NCBI GenBank assembly: GCA_016189025.1 | Contig: JACPGS010000029.1 | Span: 15,911-79,910 of the forward strand | Origin: Candidatus Magasanikiibacteriota bacterium | GTDB taxonomy: Bacteria; Patescibacteriota; Patescibacteriia; Magasanikbacterales; GWA2-37-8 | Length of the DNA: 64,000 bases | Direction: 5' to 3' | Part shown: positions 40,395-64,000 of the stretch, piece by piece | How positions within the stretch are numbered: the stretch's first letter is position 1 | How the letters are laid out: every line of letters begins with the position of its first letter | Notes under the pieces: generated by a model | Database searches by the model: none | What the model was told of the DNA's origin: nothing | The model's input: only the letters and a program-made list of their open reading frames with translations | Position numbers and translations under genes: made by a program

Positions 40395-43300
40395 TTAAAT
40401 TTCTACTACCGGATGTTCTCCTTCTGGATTCCAATTGGCGTAGCCATTAAAATTGGTTACTGGTTCTTTTATCAAAGTGACCTTAGGCTGTTCCTTAAAA
40501 TGCTGCTCATAATATCGTGCCACCTCGGGACGATTAGTGCTTGATCGTGATGTCTGATCAAGCGGTACTACGGTATGGGGAATGTTGCGTTGTGCTGCTA
40601 TCTGGCGTAGCGCGGCAAGAGTTTGCGCTATTAGTGTATCAGGCACTACCTGACTAAGCAATCCCTCTTGCGGGTTATTAGCTCGCACCAAGAGCACCAG
40701 CTCACCTTGAGGCGTTTTAGTTTCAATGGCGAGGACCGAGCCCCGCAGGCGTTCCTGGGGAGTATGGCGACCCGTAACAAAGATCAAGGGAGTAATGGTG
40801 CGATATTCACCGCGGGCGAACGCTCGGTGGTGGCTAGTAAAACAAGCATCGCCAATGTCACCAGCATAGATTCGTAAGATACCGCGCACCGGCACCAAGG
40901 TAACCTCTACAGTTTTCCCGCCCGCCTTTACTAGCGGAGTTTCTGTCTGCTGCAAAGCAGACAATTGTTCGGCGGCGATCACCAAAGGGTGCTTTTGCAG
41001 TTTGGGTTTTATCCCCCACACTAACTGTAGTTCTTTCAATAAGGTACTGGAAAACGGTTGGTGTCCGGTACGATGCTCTTCCTGTTTATTATTTAGATAA
41101 TGCTCGTTAAGGTATTCCCCTAAATGGTTATACCAGAGCTCCACTTGGGTGGCAGAAGATACCTCGGTGTTCTCTTCCAGAGCACGTTCTATTACTGATT
41201 GTCGGCCGTCCGGCATTACCAGTAGTGAGTGGTAAGCGCTGATGATCTGCAATAGTCGATCACGATCAATTACCTTTTTCGGCAGCAGCATCAGGATAGC
41301 TTCCAACCAGCTGATTAGTTCCCGGTCGCGTGCCCCCCGGTCAGGGGAAAGAGTTGGAGCTTCCAGGCGTTCCAGTGTTGCCCGGGTTTCCACCAGCGTT
41401 TGACGTTGTCTGGTCAGTGCTTTGCGATTAACGGGTTTCTCGGTTTCCCAAGCAGTAGCTAGTTCATCCAACCTGGCAATTTGTTGATCAATCTCCAATA
41501 CCAGGCGCTGGTGTTCTTCCGCCCACCAGTGAGGGAGTTGGTCAATGTTCCGGGCAGTCCGGTAGGCAACGTCAAGTTTTTTTACCCACCCCCGTAGGTC
41601 GGGGTTAGTGAGAATTTCTTGTTCGCGTGCTGCCTGCGCCTGGGGAATTTGTTCTCGGCTGCTTGCCACTGATGGCAACTTAAAGGTTACTTCTTGGTAT
41701 CCCGCGGGGAGGGCAGCTTGGTCGGGATTAGCAGCGACGGTGGTTTGCCAAAGCTGAATATTTTTTCGGGGGTCATCATTTTTTTGTTCCCAACTAGTAG
41801 CTCCTTTAATTGCATGAAAAAACTCTAAACCGAGGTCGGTATTTAGTTCCGGTGGGACTTGATCAGCCAGTAAGGCAGTTTGCAGGCGGCGCCCGAATTT
41901 TTTAATCTCGTTGATAATAAATCCTTTATTGGGTAATTCTTCCAGCCGGATGCCGAGAGTACTGGTTAATTCTTGTCGTACTTCGGCGGGCAGGTCAGTG
42001 ATTTTTTCGGACCGAGAAATGGCCACATGCCAGCGGAGGAGGGTAGGCAAATTATACATGCCGTAGGTATGCACAAAATCTTTCAACAGTTCTGCATCTT
42101 CGGCACTGTCACGTCGCAGTACTCCCCGCGTCAGTGCCTGCTCTACCAGCGGGTCTAGGTCAGTTTTCCAAGGATCATATTTTTCCCGTGCCGCGCGGGG
42201 GTGGCTTTTTAACAATTTTCCATATATGGGCTGCCAGGAAAAATTTTCGGCCAAAGAGTTTAGAGTTTCGGGGGGCAGCAGCGCCTGGAGGATCGCCGGA
42301 TATTTCAGAAATTCCGTGGGACAAAAAAAGGAAGGGGGTAGCTCGACAAAGGCTTGGCGGAGATTGGCTTGGGTTTCGGCAGGGTAGGCCATCGTCAGTT
42401 CGGTTATTTTTTTTTGGTAAAAGCCGTCGTGCAACAATTCAAGGTTAAGGGTAGGGAGACGTTGAATAATAGTATGGATAATTTCTCGTCTTTCTTCCAG
42501 CGAGAGGGGGAAGGCGGAGTACTTTAGGCGTTCCCAAGGGTTTTCGCGGCATAAGCGCAGTTTTACGGCGGAGATTTCCTCTGGGGATAGTTGAAGTTTT
42601 GCCAGAACCCCTTCATCAAGAAGATGAAAAACATGCCGACCAACCAATATATCAATAATACTATCGCGCTCGGGACGGGTAAACTCAACAGGAATTATGG
42701 GTAGGGAACTGGTTTCATGGTCAGCCACTTCGGTCAACCACTTTAAGCGTTGTTCCGGGGTGAGGGGAATTATGGGGTAAAAACGAGTCAGGTAATTATA
42801 ATAAATAGGAATAGCAGCATCTATTATTTTTGCTTGTTCGGCCTCGGGTAAAGCAAGGAAGAGGGGTTCAAATTCATCAAAATCCCGGATAATCGTAGCG
42901 GGGTTGTATTTTTGGCGCGCCGCAAAAATAGCGGGTGCGGCTGCGGTGCGATGTTCGGGGGGAAAGTCACGGAGAGAGAAACGTTGCAGCATTGACGGTT
43001 TAGTTCCTTGCGTCTGCAGTTGGGAAAAAATTTCATAACGCACTGCCGGAGTCCATTCTTGGCTGTCCCGATAGTAACCAGTTGCCACCGAAGCTAAGAC
43101 GTCCGGAAGATTGCCAAGCCTTTCCTTTATACAAGGGAGGATTTCGGTGCTGGTCTGGCAGGATTTCCTGGCCAGTTCATATAATTCATTAGCAGCGCTG
43201 TCGACCCCAGGAGTTTCGTCCGGCAGTTGGCGATAGAAAGCAATTGTCGGTTCTAACCCTTCGGCCAATTTTTCCTGTAGTCGCTTATCTACCATCTTGG

Positions 43301-46384: not shown

Positions 46385-46828
46385 CTAGGCGTCAATTGCT
46401 TCCACTTCTTTTAGCCGGCGCAGATACCGTGCGGTGCGTTCAAATTCGGTGGCCAGGAATTTTTTGACAATCGCGGCCGCGTGCTCGGGCGTTAAAAAGC
46501 GGCCGGCCAGGCAGAGCACGTTTAAGTTATCTTCTTTACGTCCCCGCTCGGCCGCTTCAATGTTATAGCCAACCCCGGCGCGAACCCCCCGCACCTTATT
46601 CGCCACTAGGCACACGCCGTGGCCCGTGCCGCAAATTAAAATGCCGCGATGTTCGCGCTTGCCGGCTACCCGTTTAGCCAGCTTTTGGGCGATTAGGGGG
46701 TAATCGTCCTCGGGATCATAACGGCTCGGCCCCAAATCCACTACCTTTATCTTAAGTTGGGTAGTCAAGTAGCGTTTGAGGTATTTTTTCAGCTGATACC
46801 CGGCGTGGTCAGAGGCGAGATAGAGCAT
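46385..46828 (-). CDS. rpiB: ribose-5-phosphate isomerase B
   Basis: MLYLASDHAG…ICGTGHGVCLVANK; start trimmed to Met17. Confidence 0.85.
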   Translation of the reverse strand: MLYLASDHAGYQLKKYLKRYLTTQLKIKVVDLGPSRYDPEDDYPLIAQKLAKRVAGKREHRGILICGTGHGVCLVANKVRGVRAGVGYNIEAAERGRKEDNLNVLCLAGRFLTPEHAAAIVKKFLATEFERTARYLRRLKEVEAIDA

Positions 46829-46921
46829 ATTGGTAGAGGCGGATTTACGCTGAAAGCTGCGCGGCTGTACACGCAAGAATAAAGCATAACAATAAGATAA
46901 TTATAGGGTACCGGGCGCCTA

Positions 46922-46950
46922 TTGACAAGAGCGCTATTTTGTGCTATTCT
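46922..46950 (+). promoter_or_regulatory. sigma70-like promoter (TTGACA-17-TATTCT) upstream of the DGR target gene
   Basis: Read from sequence; followed by a 16-codon uORF and a leader of about 160 nt. Confidence 0.45.
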
Positions 46951-47117
46951 ATACCGTTATGATGGTAATGAAAAGTCGCTCTTTAATTAGTGTCTTCAGC
47001 TTTCTTTAGCCTTATTTTATCAAAAGTAAGCCCAAAAGAAGGCTGGTAAACCAGCACTTCCTCTTTGCCACGTGGCAAGGAGTAAGCCCTTTACGAAAAG
47101 GGCAGAAAGGGATCGCT

Positions 47118-47588
47118 ATGAGCGATCTCCGCGCGTTGGCACACCTGGAAGAGCAGCTTGGCGAGGCCCGTTGGCAAGCTCTGATCAGCTCGGGTAACAC
47201 CGGGAAGATCAAGGAGTTCCTGGACACCCTCCCCGAGTGCGCCATCCCCACCGAGATGATCCTCGGCGGGGTCGCCTACGACATCCTCTCGTTCCTCCGG
47301 GGTGAGCAGTCGGTGAAGGGCGACCTCATGGTCGAGCGGGCCAAGGAGATGGGCGCTCACCAGGGTAAGAAGGAGCGCGAGCATCTCCTTGCTTACCAGG
47401 ATGAGATCCCCGTCGCGCTCCGCGGCAAGGTCGTCTTCGTCTTCACCGACGACCGGCGCCCGGGCGGCCCCGAGTACGTCTGCTGCGTCTGCTGGGACGA
47501 CGACCGCTGGGTCTCGCGCTGGGACTGGCTCGACGGCGGCTTCTTCGGCCGCTGCCGGGTTCTCCGCCGCAAGTCCGCGCAGCCCTAG
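47118..47588 (+). CDS. DGR target (variable) protein, C-terminal variable repeat
   Basis: 156 aa, about 65% GC; last 39 codons form a VR matching the downstream TR except at TR adenines. Confidence 0.7.
   Translation: MSDLRALAHLEEQLGEARWQALISSGNTGKIKEFLDTLPECAIPTEMILGGVAYDILSFLRGEQSVKGDLMVERAKEMGAHQGKKEREHLLAYQDEIPVALRGKVVFVFTDDRRPGGPEYVCCVCWDDDRWVSRWDWLDGGFFGRCRVLRRKSAQP
47454..47570 (+). repeat. DGR variable repeat (VR)
   Basis: 117 bp aligned to 47956..48072; 20 mismatches, all at TR adenine positions; identical GC-rich 3' block ccgggttctccgccgc. Confidence 0.8.
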
Positions 47589-47660
47589 GATCCTTGGAAT
47601 CTCAGCACTGTCACAAACGGTGTCGGGGTCACTCGGTCCCTTCGGCTCGCGCCGCAACAA

Positions 47661-47695
47661 GCCCGCCCTAAACACTAGGGCGGGCGTATCATTTT
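47661..47695 (+). terminator. hairpin plus T-run downstream of VR (terminator / DGR-associated stem-loop)
   Basis: gcccgccc-taaacacta-gggcgggc followed by gtatcattttt. Confidence 0.55.
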
Positions 47696-47955
47696 TGTGG
47701 TATACTGTACCCTGGATAGTAAACGAAACAGTCCACGGTGGCGGTCGCTCAAGGCGACCAAAGCTTTGGGCGGTTGAACTCTGGATACACCAACCGGCCA
47801 GAATAGTTTGGCGCATGTCGCCAGCTAGCGTGCCATTGGTATACCCTAAAAATGATGATACTTGGTGCAAAATGCTGGTGAGATCAAGTCTCCAAATAAA
47901 ATACAGCCCTGAGAGTATTCAAAGGGTAGTGATACAGATGGCAATTTGCATAAAG

Positions 47956-48072
47956 CGGCACCCGGACGACCCCGAGAACGTCTACTACGTCTACTGGAAC
48001 GACGACCGCTGGGTCACGAACTGGAACTGGCTCGACAACGACTTCAACGGCAACTACCGGGTTCTCCGCCGC
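47956..48072 (+). repeat. DGR template repeat (TR)
   Basis: Non-coding copy of VR, enriched in AAC codons in the VR frame (N-N-N-N corresponding to D/G/C in VR). Confidence 0.8.
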
Positions 48073-48113
48073 CAGTCTTCTCATTCTCCCGTCCATGTGG
48101 CGGGAGTTTCATT

Positions 48114-48536
48114 TTATGACGATTCGAGTTTCCGTATCCACCCCCCAAGCATAATACCGGCCTCAGTCAACTTTCCTGCTAGTTGTGAGTATTGGTTTGT
48201 CTCAAGCCCCTTGGCCTCCCACAAAATTGTTATGAAAAATTTAAGGTGATCAAGTTTTTGCGCAAGTTGGGTAAGTACCGCTAATTTCTGTTCACGTTTA
48301 GCATACTGCGCTGTCAATGTCACAGCAACCAAATCCGTAAATAAAATATCTATTTTTACGCCCAGCGTATAGCGCGTGAGGCGAGGAAGGTGTTGTAAAA
48401 AATTATGCCACAACAAATAACTCTCTTTGAGCAAAGACAAAATGGGAATTTCAGTACTGCCCTGCCCGTGAGCAAATTTGCCGTGGGGGGGGGGGGGCTT
48501 GATAGCCGCGTCGGTGGAAAAATTCAATTGGCTCAT
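48114..48536 (-). CDS. accessory variability determinant (Avd)-like four-helix-bundle protein; N-terminus uncertain
   Basis: LPRLTRYTLGVKIDI…LKFFITILWEAKGL…TEAGIMLGGWIRK parallels Bordetella phage Avd (IPRKHG…LRFWLRFLAGIQ…AEVGRILGSWI). Confidence 0.65.
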   Translation of the reverse strand: MSQLNFSTDAAIKPPPPHGKFAHGQGSTEIPILSLLKESYLLWHNFLQHLPRLTRYTLGVKIDILFTDLVAVTLTAQYAKREQKLAVLTQLAQKLDHLKFFITILWEAKGLETNQYSQLAGKLTEAGIMLGGWIRKLESS

Positions 48537-49517
48537 AGTTACGAAAATATTATTTGCTTAGAAAATTTATGCTTAGCGTGGGAAGAATTTATCATCGGCA
48601 AGAAAAAGAAACAAGATGTTATAGATTTTGGTCGTAGCTTGATGGACAATATTGTAGAGCTTCACGAGGCGTTAGTCAATCGCACTTATCGCCACGGCAG
48701 TTACGAAAGTTTTTACATCACCGACCCCAAACGGCGGCATATCCACAAGGCCAGCATGCGCGACCGCTTGCTTCATCACGCAGTGTATAGGATTTTGTAT
48801 CCATTTTTTGACCGTACGTTTATTGGTGACTCTTTTTCTTGCCGAGATAACAAAGGCGTACATAAAGCGCTTAATCGTTTTCGGCGTCTAGCCTGGCGTG
48901 CCAGCCGCAACCATACGCGCAATGTCTGGGTGTTTAAGTGCGACATCCGCAAGTTTTTTGCGCGCGTTGACCACCAGATTTTGTTAGCGATTTTGCATAC
49001 CTATATTCCGGATACGGATATTTTACGGCTGCTGCAAAATATTATTGAGAGCTACCATACCGAAAGCAATCCTGGCATTGGCCTACCGCTTGGTAACCTC
49101 ACCTCACAGCTTTTCGCCAATGTGTATCTAAACCGGCTTGATCACTGGGCCAAGCACGCACTTAAGTCGCATTATTATGTGCGTTATGCCGATGATTTTG
49201 TTTTGCTTTCTCGCGACCGGTTCCAGTTAGCAGAAGCCCTACCAAAAATTCAGGAATTTTTGCAGACTCAACTAAAACTATCCCTGCACCCGGACAAAAT
49301 ATTATTAAAGACAGTAGCCTCGGGCATGGATTTTTTAGGCTGGGTACATTTTTCCAGCCATTGTTTGCTTCGTACCAAAACTAAACAGAGAATGTTACAG
49401 AATATCAGAAACTCAATCAGCGAGGCGGGTCTGACATCATATCTCGGCCTAATCAGCCATGGCAACACCGCCGGATTGCGCGAACGGGTGATGGAGGAGT
49501 ATTGGCTGTGGAATTAA
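48405..49517 (+). CDS. DGR-type reverse transcriptase; true start probably near 48528
   Basis: YENIICLENLCLAWEEFIIGKKKK N-terminal RT0 block, TSQLFANVYLNRLDH, YVRYADDFVLL (YADD) catalytic motif. Confidence 0.85.
   Translation: MPQQITLFEQRQNGNFSTALPVSKFAVGGGGLDSRVGGKIQLAHSYENIICLENLCLAWEEFIIGKKKKQDVIDFGRSLMDNIVELHEALVNRTYRHGSYESFYITDPKRRHIHKASMRDRLLHHAVYRILYPFFDRTFIGDSFSCRDNKGVHKALNRFRRLAWRASRNHTRNVWVFKCDIRKFFARVDHQILLAILHTYIPDTDILRLLQNIIESYHTESNPGIGLPLGNLTSQLFANVYLNRLDHWAKHALKSHYYVRYADDFVLLSRDRFQLAEALPKIQEFLQTQLKLSLHPDKILLKTVASGMDFLGWVHFSSHCLLRTKTKQRMLQNIRNSISEAGLTSYLGLISHGNTAGLRERVMEEYWLWN
48485..48497. repeat. 13-nt poly-G homopolymer at the avd/RT 5' junction
   Basis: Seen directly (ccgt G13 ctt). 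Confidence 0.9.
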
Positions 49518-50692
49518 AGTAACGATTTTGGATCTACTCGGAGAATCTTATCATCCCCGCTCCGGGGTTTGCCGCGACCGTCGGTGTTGGAGGTGGAAAG
49601 GTAGAGGTAACCATCGGGGCCAAGCGCAATTGCGCGCAGCCTGCCGTAATGACCGCGCCAATGGGCGCGCAGTTTTTTTACTTTCCCCGCGGGAGTAATT
49701 TCGGCTTCGTACAACGACTCGCCGCGCAGACCGGTAAAGAAAATCCGATCTTGGTAAAAAACTGCTCCGGCCGGCGCCCAGGTTTCTTTCGGGCCGGAGT
49801 TAATCACAGGCGTTTTCATCTGGGCGCGTTTTTCTTTTCCCTGAATCGTCGGCCAGCCATAATTCGCGCCTGATTCAATCAGATTTAATTCATCTAAACC
49901 CGATAGTATTCCTGACCGGCCATGTTCGGTTTCCCACAGCCGCCCTTGGTTATCCCAGGCCAATCCCTGGGCATTGCGGTGGCCATAGGAATAGACTGCC
50001 GTGCCCAAGGGATTGTTGGCGGGGATGCCTCCGTTATCGGCCAGGCGCAAAGTTTTGCCGGCGAGAGATTTCAGATTTTGCGCTAATTCTGGTTTGCCCG
50101 CATCGCCGGTAGTAATATATAGGAAACCATCCGGCCCAAAGGCGAGGCGTCCGCCGTCGTGGTAGGGCGCGCCGGGGATGTTATCAATAATGATTAAGGG
50201 GTCAGTAAGGAAATTTATCCATTGATCATTAACTAAATCAGCCTCCAAACGATAGCGGGTAATGCGGTTTTTTAAGGTAAAATCCGTGCCGGAAGTTTGG
50301 TAAAGATAAAGCCAGTGGTTGTTGTTATAATTTGGGTGAACTGCTAGGCCGAGCAGCCCTCCTTCGCCGGCCGCCGCGCCTCCATTCGGTACAGTAATAG
50401 TAGTAATTTTGCCGTCCGTAGTAATTTTGCGCAGCGTCCCGGGTCGCTCCGTTACCAGCATATCCCCGCCCGGCAGCCAGGCAATTTCCCAGGGAATGCG
50501 GAGGTTTTGGGCAACTACGGATACGGTGGAGGTAGGCAAGGCGGCCGGGGCGGTAACTTGTTCCAGCGCGCTCCCCGTGGGGCGATAGAGCAGATAGCCC
50601 AAAGGGTGCAGGGAACCTAGCAAGATGCCGAAGGCAGCAGCACCGGCAAACCAAAACATGACTATTGCTTGGTGGCGTCCTGGTATATTCAT
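49514..50692 (-). CDS. PQQ-dependent sugar dehydrogenase (soluble aldose dehydrogenase-like beta-propeller)
   Basis: GLLGLAVHPNY and HGRNAQGLAWD blocks, N-terminal signal/TM. Confidence 0.7.
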   Translation of the reverse strand: MNIPGRHQAIVMFWFAGAAAFGILLGSLHPLGYLLYRPTGSALEQVTAPAALPTSTVSVVAQNLRIPWEIAWLPGGDMLVTERPGTLRKITTDGKITTITVPNGGAAAGEGGLLGLAVHPNYNNNHWLYLYQTSGTDFTLKNRITRYRLEADLVNDQWINFLTDPLIIIDNIPGAPYHDGGRLAFGPDGFLYITTGDAGKPELAQNLKSLAGKTLRLADNGGIPANNPLGTAVYSYGHRNAQGLAWDNQGRLWETEHGRSGILSGLDELNLIESGANYGWPTIQGKEKRAQMKTPVINSGPKETWAPAGAVFYQDRIFFTGLRGESLYEAEITPAGKVKKLRAHWRGHYGRLRAIALGPDGYLYLSTSNTDGRGKPRSGDDKILRVDPKSLL

Positions 50693-63673: not shown

Positions 63674-64000
63674 ATCGTACACCTCCTTTCTTAAATCGCG
63701 CGGCGCCGGAAGCGCCAGGCGCGCGGTGATGCAGTATCGCGTGAGTCGCTATATGTTTAGTGAGAATTCCCTAGGGAGTATTCCCACTCTCCCCGACCCC
63801 GTTTGATTCCGAGGAAAATTTTTTACCCGACAAGCATGGGGGTAAAATTTTCTTTCGACCTGATGAATATATTATAGAGTGTTTTGCAATAAAAATAAAT
63901 AGCGTCAAGCAAAGTTATGCACAGGGGGGGGGAAAATCGGAAAAAATTTATCAGTACGTTTTGTAAAATCAATTTAGAAATTAAAAAACCACCTCTCTTT

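Follow-up and report, generated by a model that had tools for sequence, protein, structure and literature searches.

A conserved poly-G tract in the 5' region of avd as a candidate phase-variation switch of patescibacterial diversity-generating retroelements

The window analysed here is a stretch of 64,000 nucleotides (nt) from a Candidatus Magasanikiibacteriota bacterium (GenBank assembly GCA_016189025.1, contig JACPGS010000029.1, positions 15,911 to 79,910 of the forward strand). The 13-nt run of G that is the subject of this study lies in a complete diversity-generating retroelement (DGR), which comprises a target gene with its variable repeat (VR), a template repeat (TR), a divergent avd gene and a reverse transcriptase (RT) gene, in the order target/VR, TR, avd (reversed), RT. 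The target gene (47118-47588, plus strand) is an open reading frame (ORF) of 156 amino acids (aa), for which no Pfam or NCBIfam match was obtained. Comparison of the two repeats places the VR at its 3' end (47454-47575, plus strand), 13 nt from the stop codon of the ORF, and the TR at 47956-48077 on the same strand. TR and VR are 83% identical; as is typical of DGRs, they differ almost only at TR adenines, with 20 mismatches at these positions (A-to-N) and one C>A change. The RT gene (48528-49517, plus strand; NCBI MBI2444614.1) is annotated as encoding 329 aa from TTG 48528, a start that should be considered putative. The corresponding plus-strand ORF extends over 48405-49517 (370 aa) and matches RVT_1 (E=5.6e-23), and its translation contains LGNLTSQ and YADD, that is, the [LIV]GxxxSQ and YxDD motifs of DGR RTs. 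In NCBIfam, the RT has only sub-threshold matches, to group II intron and Drt models. On the minus strand, the long avd ORF (48114-48536; NCBI MBI2444613.1) encodes 140 aa from ATG 48536. Its product matches Pfam bAvd (PF22296) with E=1.8e-10 and 41.7 bits (cut-off 40) and NCBIfam DivGenRetAVD (NF033474) with E=2e-16 and 60.1 bits, below the cut-off of 80; the matches cover the four-helix-bundle domain that defines Avd proteins. A search of Protein Data Bank sequences with Avd gave no match. NCBI places avd and RT in a Candidatus Magasanikbacteria metagenome-assembled genome (MAG).

The divergent avd and RT ORFs overlap over 48405-48536 and the tract lies within this overlap, as an earlier note on this DNA had described. 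The plus-strand sequence is GCCGT-G13-CTTGATAGCC, in which the G run occupies 48485-48497 and corresponds to C13 in the avd sense. Read in the avd frame, the run is CCC CCC CCC CCC, hence PPPP (residues 14-17); the RT frame has four GGG codons instead, in agreement with the PPPP and GGGG of that note. G13 is the longest homopolymer of the window, followed by G9 at 63924-63932 and T9 at 42407-42415; the longest C run has 6 nt. In 100 shuffled sequences preserving dinucleotides, none reached four overlapping G10 matches, equivalent to a run of 13, the mean being 0.38 matches. In this genome CCC makes up only 32% of the proline codons and the sole other PPP found among 40 long ORFs is CCGCCACCA, so that a coding need fails to explain a pure homopolymer. 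The second-longest G run (63924-63932) lies in AT-rich, apparently intergenic sequence near the window end, and may be slippage-prone too.

Extended back to their first position, both the Pfam and the NCBIfam profile would begin at about residue 30 of the avd product, so that the 29 residues before it, PPPP among them, would form a leader ahead of the Avd domain. This leader (48450-48536, minus strand; MSQLNFSTDAAIK-PPPP-HGKFAHGQGSTE) contains the tract, and the four-helix-bundle domain (48114-48449, minus strand) starts at a conserved [IL]-P-I-[LI] motif. Among relatives, codon-position entropy over the first 20 codons of the domain (0.98/0.65/1.40) has the signature of coding in the Avd frame, and the [IL]-P-I-[LI] motif varies at synonymous third positions, which indicates that it is translated.

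These relatives were gathered by using the RT as query of genome and metagenome collections, which returned 44 loci (designated by L numbers), and later look-ups added 15. Exact-protein look-ups with the RT and Avd of the window returned no record, and sister assemblies of the window strain came from cluster members. The set used below consists of 22 unique lineages in which avd and RT are divergent, from MAGs of Magasanik-, Uhr-, Kerfeld- and Paceibacteria, with RT identities of 53-74%. Related genomes were examined for the tract, a check that the earlier note had proposed: in these 22 lineages, a run of G7-G13 lies between the Avd domain and the RT start, always with G on the RT-sense strand. 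The gap between Avd domain and RT start measures 35-80 nt, except in L009, where it is at least 109 nt and contains an insertion. The tract flanks are barely conserved, apart from a 5' cgtT and a 3' ct. The uninterrupted homopolymer of about 7 nt or more that is expected of a contingency locus is thus found as G13 in the window and as G7-G13 in the relatives, the only interrupted run being that of L008 (GGGGGGGCGG). Two sublineages are devoid of the tract: L032, L033, L038 and L044 carry GGAGGAAAG instead, and in L039 and L040 the start codons of avd and RT are a few nt apart. The insertion of L009 has about 80 nt, lies between tract and RT start and is bounded by an inverted repeat (CCCGTTAGAAAT...ATTTCTAACGGG); avd of L009 is one base out of frame when compared with its close relative L035. 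In L027, a G7 tract is found upstream of the RT, no avd homologue was detected upstream and the architecture appears rearranged.

On the avd strand, an ATG-initiated frame is open into the tract in 22/22 lineages, the ATG being located 15-44 nt upstream of the tract in most of them. The other two avd-strand frames are rarely ATG-initiated and open into the tract. In lineages of the window type, the leader ATG is the antisense of a conserved RT histidine codon, which is CAT in 19/19 lineages. Likewise, the RT leucine codon overlapped by the leader is either TTG or CTG in 18 lineages; TTA, which would put TAA into the avd leader, does not occur in such an overlap. The same leucine codon is TTA in three Kerfeldbacteria-type lineages, where the leader does not overlap it. 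The choice of these RT histidine and leucine codons keeps the avd leader open. In the Kerfeldbacteria-type loci, the starts of avd and RT are back to back at CATATG and the tract corresponds to avd codons 5-8. Moreover, 16/22 lineages have no ATG, GTG or TTG from the tract to the conserved [IL]PI[LI] motif, and in L006, L009 and L012 no start codon is found for more than 15 codons into the Avd domain. Both the annotated avd ORF (140 aa) and the conserved leader that opens with an ATG contain the tract, with the reservation that the start is predicted and that six lineages have later alternative starts. One Magasanikbacteria lineage (L003, L018, L019 and L020) has a TGA in avd helix 1, at a conserved tryptophan (LLW to LL*), which could be a nonsense mutation, or reflect read-through or recoding.

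The consequence of tract length for the avd product was derived in silico. For the window strain, the predicted product has 140 aa at G13, 59 aa at G12 and 27 aa at G11, and the ORF starting at ATG 48536 is open only at G13, G10 or G7. Across the family, the tract joins leader and Avd domain in frame in 10/22 lineages and leaves them one base off in 12/22, six in each direction; L042, which has two frameshifts, was left out of this count. The earlier note had suggested that the tract could switch Avd or RT. The Avd part of this suggestion is supported by the truncations at G12 and G11; the RT part is considered further below.

Tract lengths, taken from assembly consensus sequences, were found to differ between close relatives. 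In the window strain itself, the run is G13 in the window, G12 in L046 (SRR12113425) and G11 in L045 (SRR12113422), the last two being Logan assemblies of other sequencing runs. No other difference from the window was seen over 4.6 kb in L045 and 1.95 kb in L046. The contigs of L045 and L046 start just upstream of the TR (window ~47888-47902), which fits the presence of the VR/TR repeat. A second lineage, that of P0002 (RT 72% identical), is represented by eight assemblies with G10 and by single ones with G11 and G13, for which the predicted avd products are 148, 21 and 149 aa, respectively. L052 and L055, the two assemblies of this lineage that cover the target gene, have few other differences, mostly in the VR, which shows that the DGR is active in this lineage. 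In the same lineage, positions 394-423 of L052, compared with L051, L053 and L055, differ at a few VR positions, and the avd-RT cassette is otherwise nearly identical. A third lineage has G9 in L058 and G10 in L057, with 96.7% identity. A relative of the window strain, L059, has G7 in the same context as the window, at ~80% DNA identity to it and with an Avd 92% identical. At the level of assembly consensus, the length variation among near-identical genomes that characterizes contingency loci is therefore observed, and the description of the tract as a slipped-strand hotspot in the earlier note is supported by the three lengths of the window strain and by the variation in two further lineages.

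The same note had mentioned that the tract might be an artefact of assembly or sequencing, for instance poly-G noise at read ends. Poly-G artefacts do occur on two-colour Illumina machines, and one contig of the set, L011, carries C-rich low-complexity sequence at the end that coincides with the tract position. However, the tract is interior to long contigs obtained by many independent projects and assemblers, at the same place relative to the two genes in 22 independent lineages, and unique, matching sequence flanks it on both sides. The recurrence of G10 in eight assemblies and of the in-frame lengths 7, 10 and 13 in the same context points in the same direction. An artefact is accordingly very improbable. 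L034, an assembly of the same lineage as L011, likewise has a contig end at the tract position, beginning with the G10 run.

The position of the RT start bears on whether the tract could also act on RT translation. In nine lineages, the RT starts downstream of the tract, at an ATG or GTG that precedes K-I-Q-L or at a comparable start, and four of these have a stop codon between tract and RT start. Consequently, the tract is not RT coding sequence in general, and a direct switch of the RT frame is at best lineage-specific. The ATG 48405 that had been put forward as the RT start was not upheld. From this codon, the extension of the RT frame (48405-48527, plus strand) begins with MPQQITLFE, the exact codon antisense of LKESYLLWH in Avd helix 1, and variation in the extension follows the Avd frame. 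An authentic N-terminal extension from ATG 48405 was rejected for this reason, the 5' part of the extension being a mirror (shadow) ORF of avd. An RT start at an NTG codon abutting the tract is not supported either, since the required frame is used in only ~5/13 relevant lineages. A role of the G run as a Shine-Dalgarno sequence was also rejected, because a distance of 17-35 nt from the RT start is too long. Comparison with homologues, which had been proposed as a means to determine the start codons, placed the RT start after the tract in nine relatives; the window type has no ATG after the tract, so that its RT start would be TTG 48528 or a codon upstream. In L016 and L031, where no canonical RT start follows the tract, RT translation may run across it. 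Codon for codon, the upstream RT frame is the exact antisense of the avd leader; in loci whose RT lacks a start beyond the tract (L016, L031, perhaps the window), one slip could toggle both proteins.

It may be asked whether the tract acts as non-coding DNA, as a regulatory element in the very short divergent 5' region that serves the RT promoter or mRNA, or both genes, for example a length-sensitive spacer or an element of the 5' untranslated region (UTR). Tract length would then tune transcription or translation, and not the reading frame. Several observations are in keeping with such a role. Where the RT ATG is unambiguous, it is located 17-35 nt downstream of the tract. The three phases of the tract are about equally frequent, the CGTT beside it is read in different frames in different lineages, and a weak TAnnAG motif follows it. 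However, no conserved -35 and -10 hexamers were found at a fixed distance around the tract, as would be expected if it were a promoter spacer, and a candidate plus-strand RT promoter inside avd was rejected because its -35 hexamer is not conserved. A scan combined with conservation revealed a sigma-70-like promoter elsewhere, in RT codons 41-51 (48651-48679, minus strand), with TTGACT, a 17-nt spacer and TACAAT. The -10 hexamer conforms to TAnAAT in ~19/23 lineages, and RT codon 43 stays NTA (GTA, ATA, TTA, CTA) despite amino-acid change (V/I/L). The -35 hexamer keeps TTG, as RT codon 50 ends in C in ~18/23 lineages. As judged from this pattern, 48651-48679 is probably the avd promoter. If so, transcription would start near 48644 and the tract would lie ~150 nt inside the avd transcript, outside the promoter spacer, the predicted avd 5' UTR of ~108 nt being antisense to the RT 5' end. 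Finally, a non-coding role leaves unexplained the ATG-initiated open leader of every lineage and the absence of another avd start in most. For these reasons, such a role is considered unlikely. In the predicted 5' UTR of the window, at ~48539-48595 (minus strand), an 18-codon upstream ORF (ATG ATA AAT ...) was read by eye, in the window only; its TAA stop is 2 nt before ATG 48536, which suggests possible translational coupling.

Taken together, these observations incline us to regard the tract as a contingency (simple-sequence-repeat) switch located in a 5' coding leader of avd, by which slipped-strand mispairing would make Avd, and hence DGR activity, phase-variable. In this mechanism, avd would be transcribed from a promoter within the first ~50 RT codons and its translation would begin at ATG 48536, antisense of the conserved RT histidine codon. 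The ribosome would pass 13 leader codons, the C13 run (PPPP) and 12 more codons before entering the four-helix domain. Slippage during replication would alter the tract length, so that 13, 10 or 7 would be in frame (ON), while 12 or 11 would halt translation after 59 or 27 codons (OFF). Avd of Bordetella phage BPP-1 is a pentameric barrel that binds the RT. In that phage, Avd is established to be needed by the DGR RT for cDNA synthesis, which is assumed to hold for the present locus. A slip in avd would then toggle RT-dependent cDNA synthesis and VR mutagenesis. With each slip, adenine-directed mutagenesis of the target gene would be switched on or off in the descendants of the cell, in a heritable and reversible manner.

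Several facts weigh against this mechanism. In six lineages, the tract is followed by a start codon (ATG in L025; TTG in L005, L015, L022, L031 and L037), which allows Avd to be produced there without the leader. At 48440, inside IPIL, the window itself has a TTG, the start chosen by Prodigal for L046 (106 aa), and no Shine-Dalgarno sequence precedes the putative start ATG 48536. The conservation of the leader ATG and of its openness is partly confounded by the coding constraints of the RT on the opposite strand. As to length variation, seven groups of duplicate assemblies keep one length in every copy (many of them may share reads), the length of G runs of 10-13 nt is error-prone in short-read assemblies, and some of the contigs compared are short, with maybe low coverage. 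Lastly, the in-frame state is not enriched (10/22 compared with 1/3 by chance, P=0.16). A non-coding tract would give the same phase distribution, and 10/22 fits unbiased switching as well.

In another reading, the tract would belong to the avd coding sequence but act mainly at the RNA or ribosome level. RNA polymerase slippage on the long C/G run, or +1 ribosomal slippage at CCC-C, would provide some in-frame Avd at any tract length, in which case the tract would be a rheostat setting low constitutive Avd and not a heritable switch. In favor of this idea, 12/22 lineages are out of frame at consensus and yet have an intact, conserved Avd domain; in addition, a run of 9-13 nt has the length that polymerase slippage needs, and CCC-C is among the sites known to be prone to +1 shifts. 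Nevertheless, length differences at the DNA level do exist between near-identical assemblies, and the best-documented cases of polymerase slippage concern A/T rather than G/C runs. We therefore regard slippage at the RNA or ribosome level as a rather improbable explanation of the tract.

Alternatively, the homopolymer would have no regulatory role, being a proline-coding or spacer sequence kept by mutational inertia, and the out-of-frame loci would represent decaying elements or length errors. The phase distribution, indistinguishable from random, would agree with this, as would the degenerate avd of L042 with its two frameshifts, the TGA at the conserved tryptophan in the L003 group, and the contigs L034 and L011, whose end at the tract suggests assembly trouble. 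On the other hand, an unselected homopolymer should gain interruptions, and only that of L008 is seen across RTs that are 53-74% identical. Moreover, the Avd domains of the out-of-frame lineages are still open and conserved, the in-frame alleles 7, 10 and 13 recur in one sequence context, and activity of the second lineage is evident from its VR differences. The absence of any role is likewise regarded as rather improbable, and the contingency switch in the avd leader is retained as the preferred explanation.

A large DGR family of Patescibacteria, distributed over Magasanik-, Uhr-, Kerfeld- and Paceibacteria, may carry a built-in stochastic ON/OFF homopolymer switch in avd. This generalization is offered tentatively, as a serious possibility that falls somewhat short of being probable. 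Were it true, targeted hypermutation would itself be phase-variable, with a mutable switch governing a mutagenesis machine; most cells would keep the target gene frozen and a minority would diversify it. DGRs are especially abundant in bacteria of the candidate phyla radiation and, to our knowledge, the control of DGR activity is largely unknown. A conserved slippage tract in an essential accessory gene would be a simple regulatory logic, not encountered in the literature searched, and would mean heritable, reversible and random switching of a targeted-mutation system. Individual samples would be expected to contain mixtures of tract lengths, and in-frame alleles should vary in frequency together with VR diversity.

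The family also illustrates that automated annotation of these loci is unreliable. Among the database homologues of Avd, 18/67 are long forms with 2-4 leader prolines, and 49/67 start at or inside helix 1, most being truncated within helix 1. RTs are annotated with three different spurious N-terminal extensions: 46 of the best 120 RT homologues have N-terminal extensions reading through GG(G), in three upstream frames. Because of such truncated Avd and misextended RT calls, DGR-finding pipelines may score many elements as lacking an intact Avd.

Other features surround the core of the element. A terminator-like hairpin followed by a T-run (48086-48106, plus strand) begins 9 nt past the TR end; this hairpin region (48086-48115, GGCGGGAGTTTCATTTT) resembles another with a T-run at 47661-47695 (GGCGGGCGTATCATTTT), after the target gene. 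With terminator-like hairpins at these places, the TR transcript may end ahead of avd and RT, in which case the RT would need its own promoter. An Rfam scan of 46800-49700 gave no match at E<=1. As a possible pairing partner of the tract in RNA, the C6 run at 48142-48147 (antisense of Avd GGW codons) was rejected; it is not conserved, and relatives use varied GGN codons. The locus is chromosomal, with trxB-, rpe-, rpiB-, GSDH- and Fic-like genes as neighbours. The G+C content of the avd-RT cassette (48100-49450) is 42-48%, compared with 55-67% for the target gene and flanking housekeeping genes, which fits horizontal acquisition of the cassette.

The organization of the locus can be compared with that of the BPP-1 DGR (mtd-avd-TR-brt), which has another element order. 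Both have a target with a C-terminal VR, an adenine-specific TR, an Avd and an RT with LGxxxSQ and YADD. Unlike in BPP-1, avd is here divergent from the RT and lies between TR and RT, with 5' ends that overlap or abut; a terminator-like hairpin follows the TR and a homopolymer is found in the avd 5' region. As regards hypermutable repeats that govern many phenotypes or the supply of mutations, phasevarions (mod methyltransferases controlled by simple sequence repeats) and repeat-controlled mismatch-repair genes are examples of such second-order bet-hedging. The effect proposed here would differ from theirs, consisting of targeted hypermutation of one ligand-binding gene via reverse transcription rather than methylation or genome-wide mutation. 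Repeats are also known in promoter spacers, as with the poly-C of Bordetella fim, the poly-G of Neisseria porA and opc, and the TA repeats between the divergent hifA and hifB genes of H. influenzae. The present tract resembles them in lying between divergent genes or at their 5' ends; it differs in that no conserved -35/-10 pair flanks it and that the probable avd promoter lies elsewhere.

In the searchable library, a search for DGRs together with homopolymers, phase variation or slipped-strand mispairing retrieved no paper linking them, and no such tract or switch. The avd tract resembles the poly-G/C contingency loci of Campylobacter jejuni, Neisseria meningitidis and Haemophilus influenzae, which show translational phase variation. 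C. jejuni NCTC11168 has 29 polyG/polyC tracts with a length of at least 7 (PMC4965091), and hmbR and hpuAB have poly-G tracts within their ORFs (PMC3786947). These loci share with the avd tract a G/C run of at least 7 nt close to the 5' end of an ORF, a length that varies between close genomes and a frame that is shifted by a one-base change. The known loci mostly concern surface structures, receptors and restriction-modification genes of host-associated pathogens, whereas the gene that would be controlled here encodes the accessory protein of retroelement mutagenesis, in uncultured groundwater Patescibacteria, free-living or episymbiotic. Contingency loci of phage genomes provide a last parallel, a mobile or accessory element being reported to use polymerase-slippage tracts for bet-hedging (PMC12633550). 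The present locus is distinct in being chromosomal and in that it would control a DGR.

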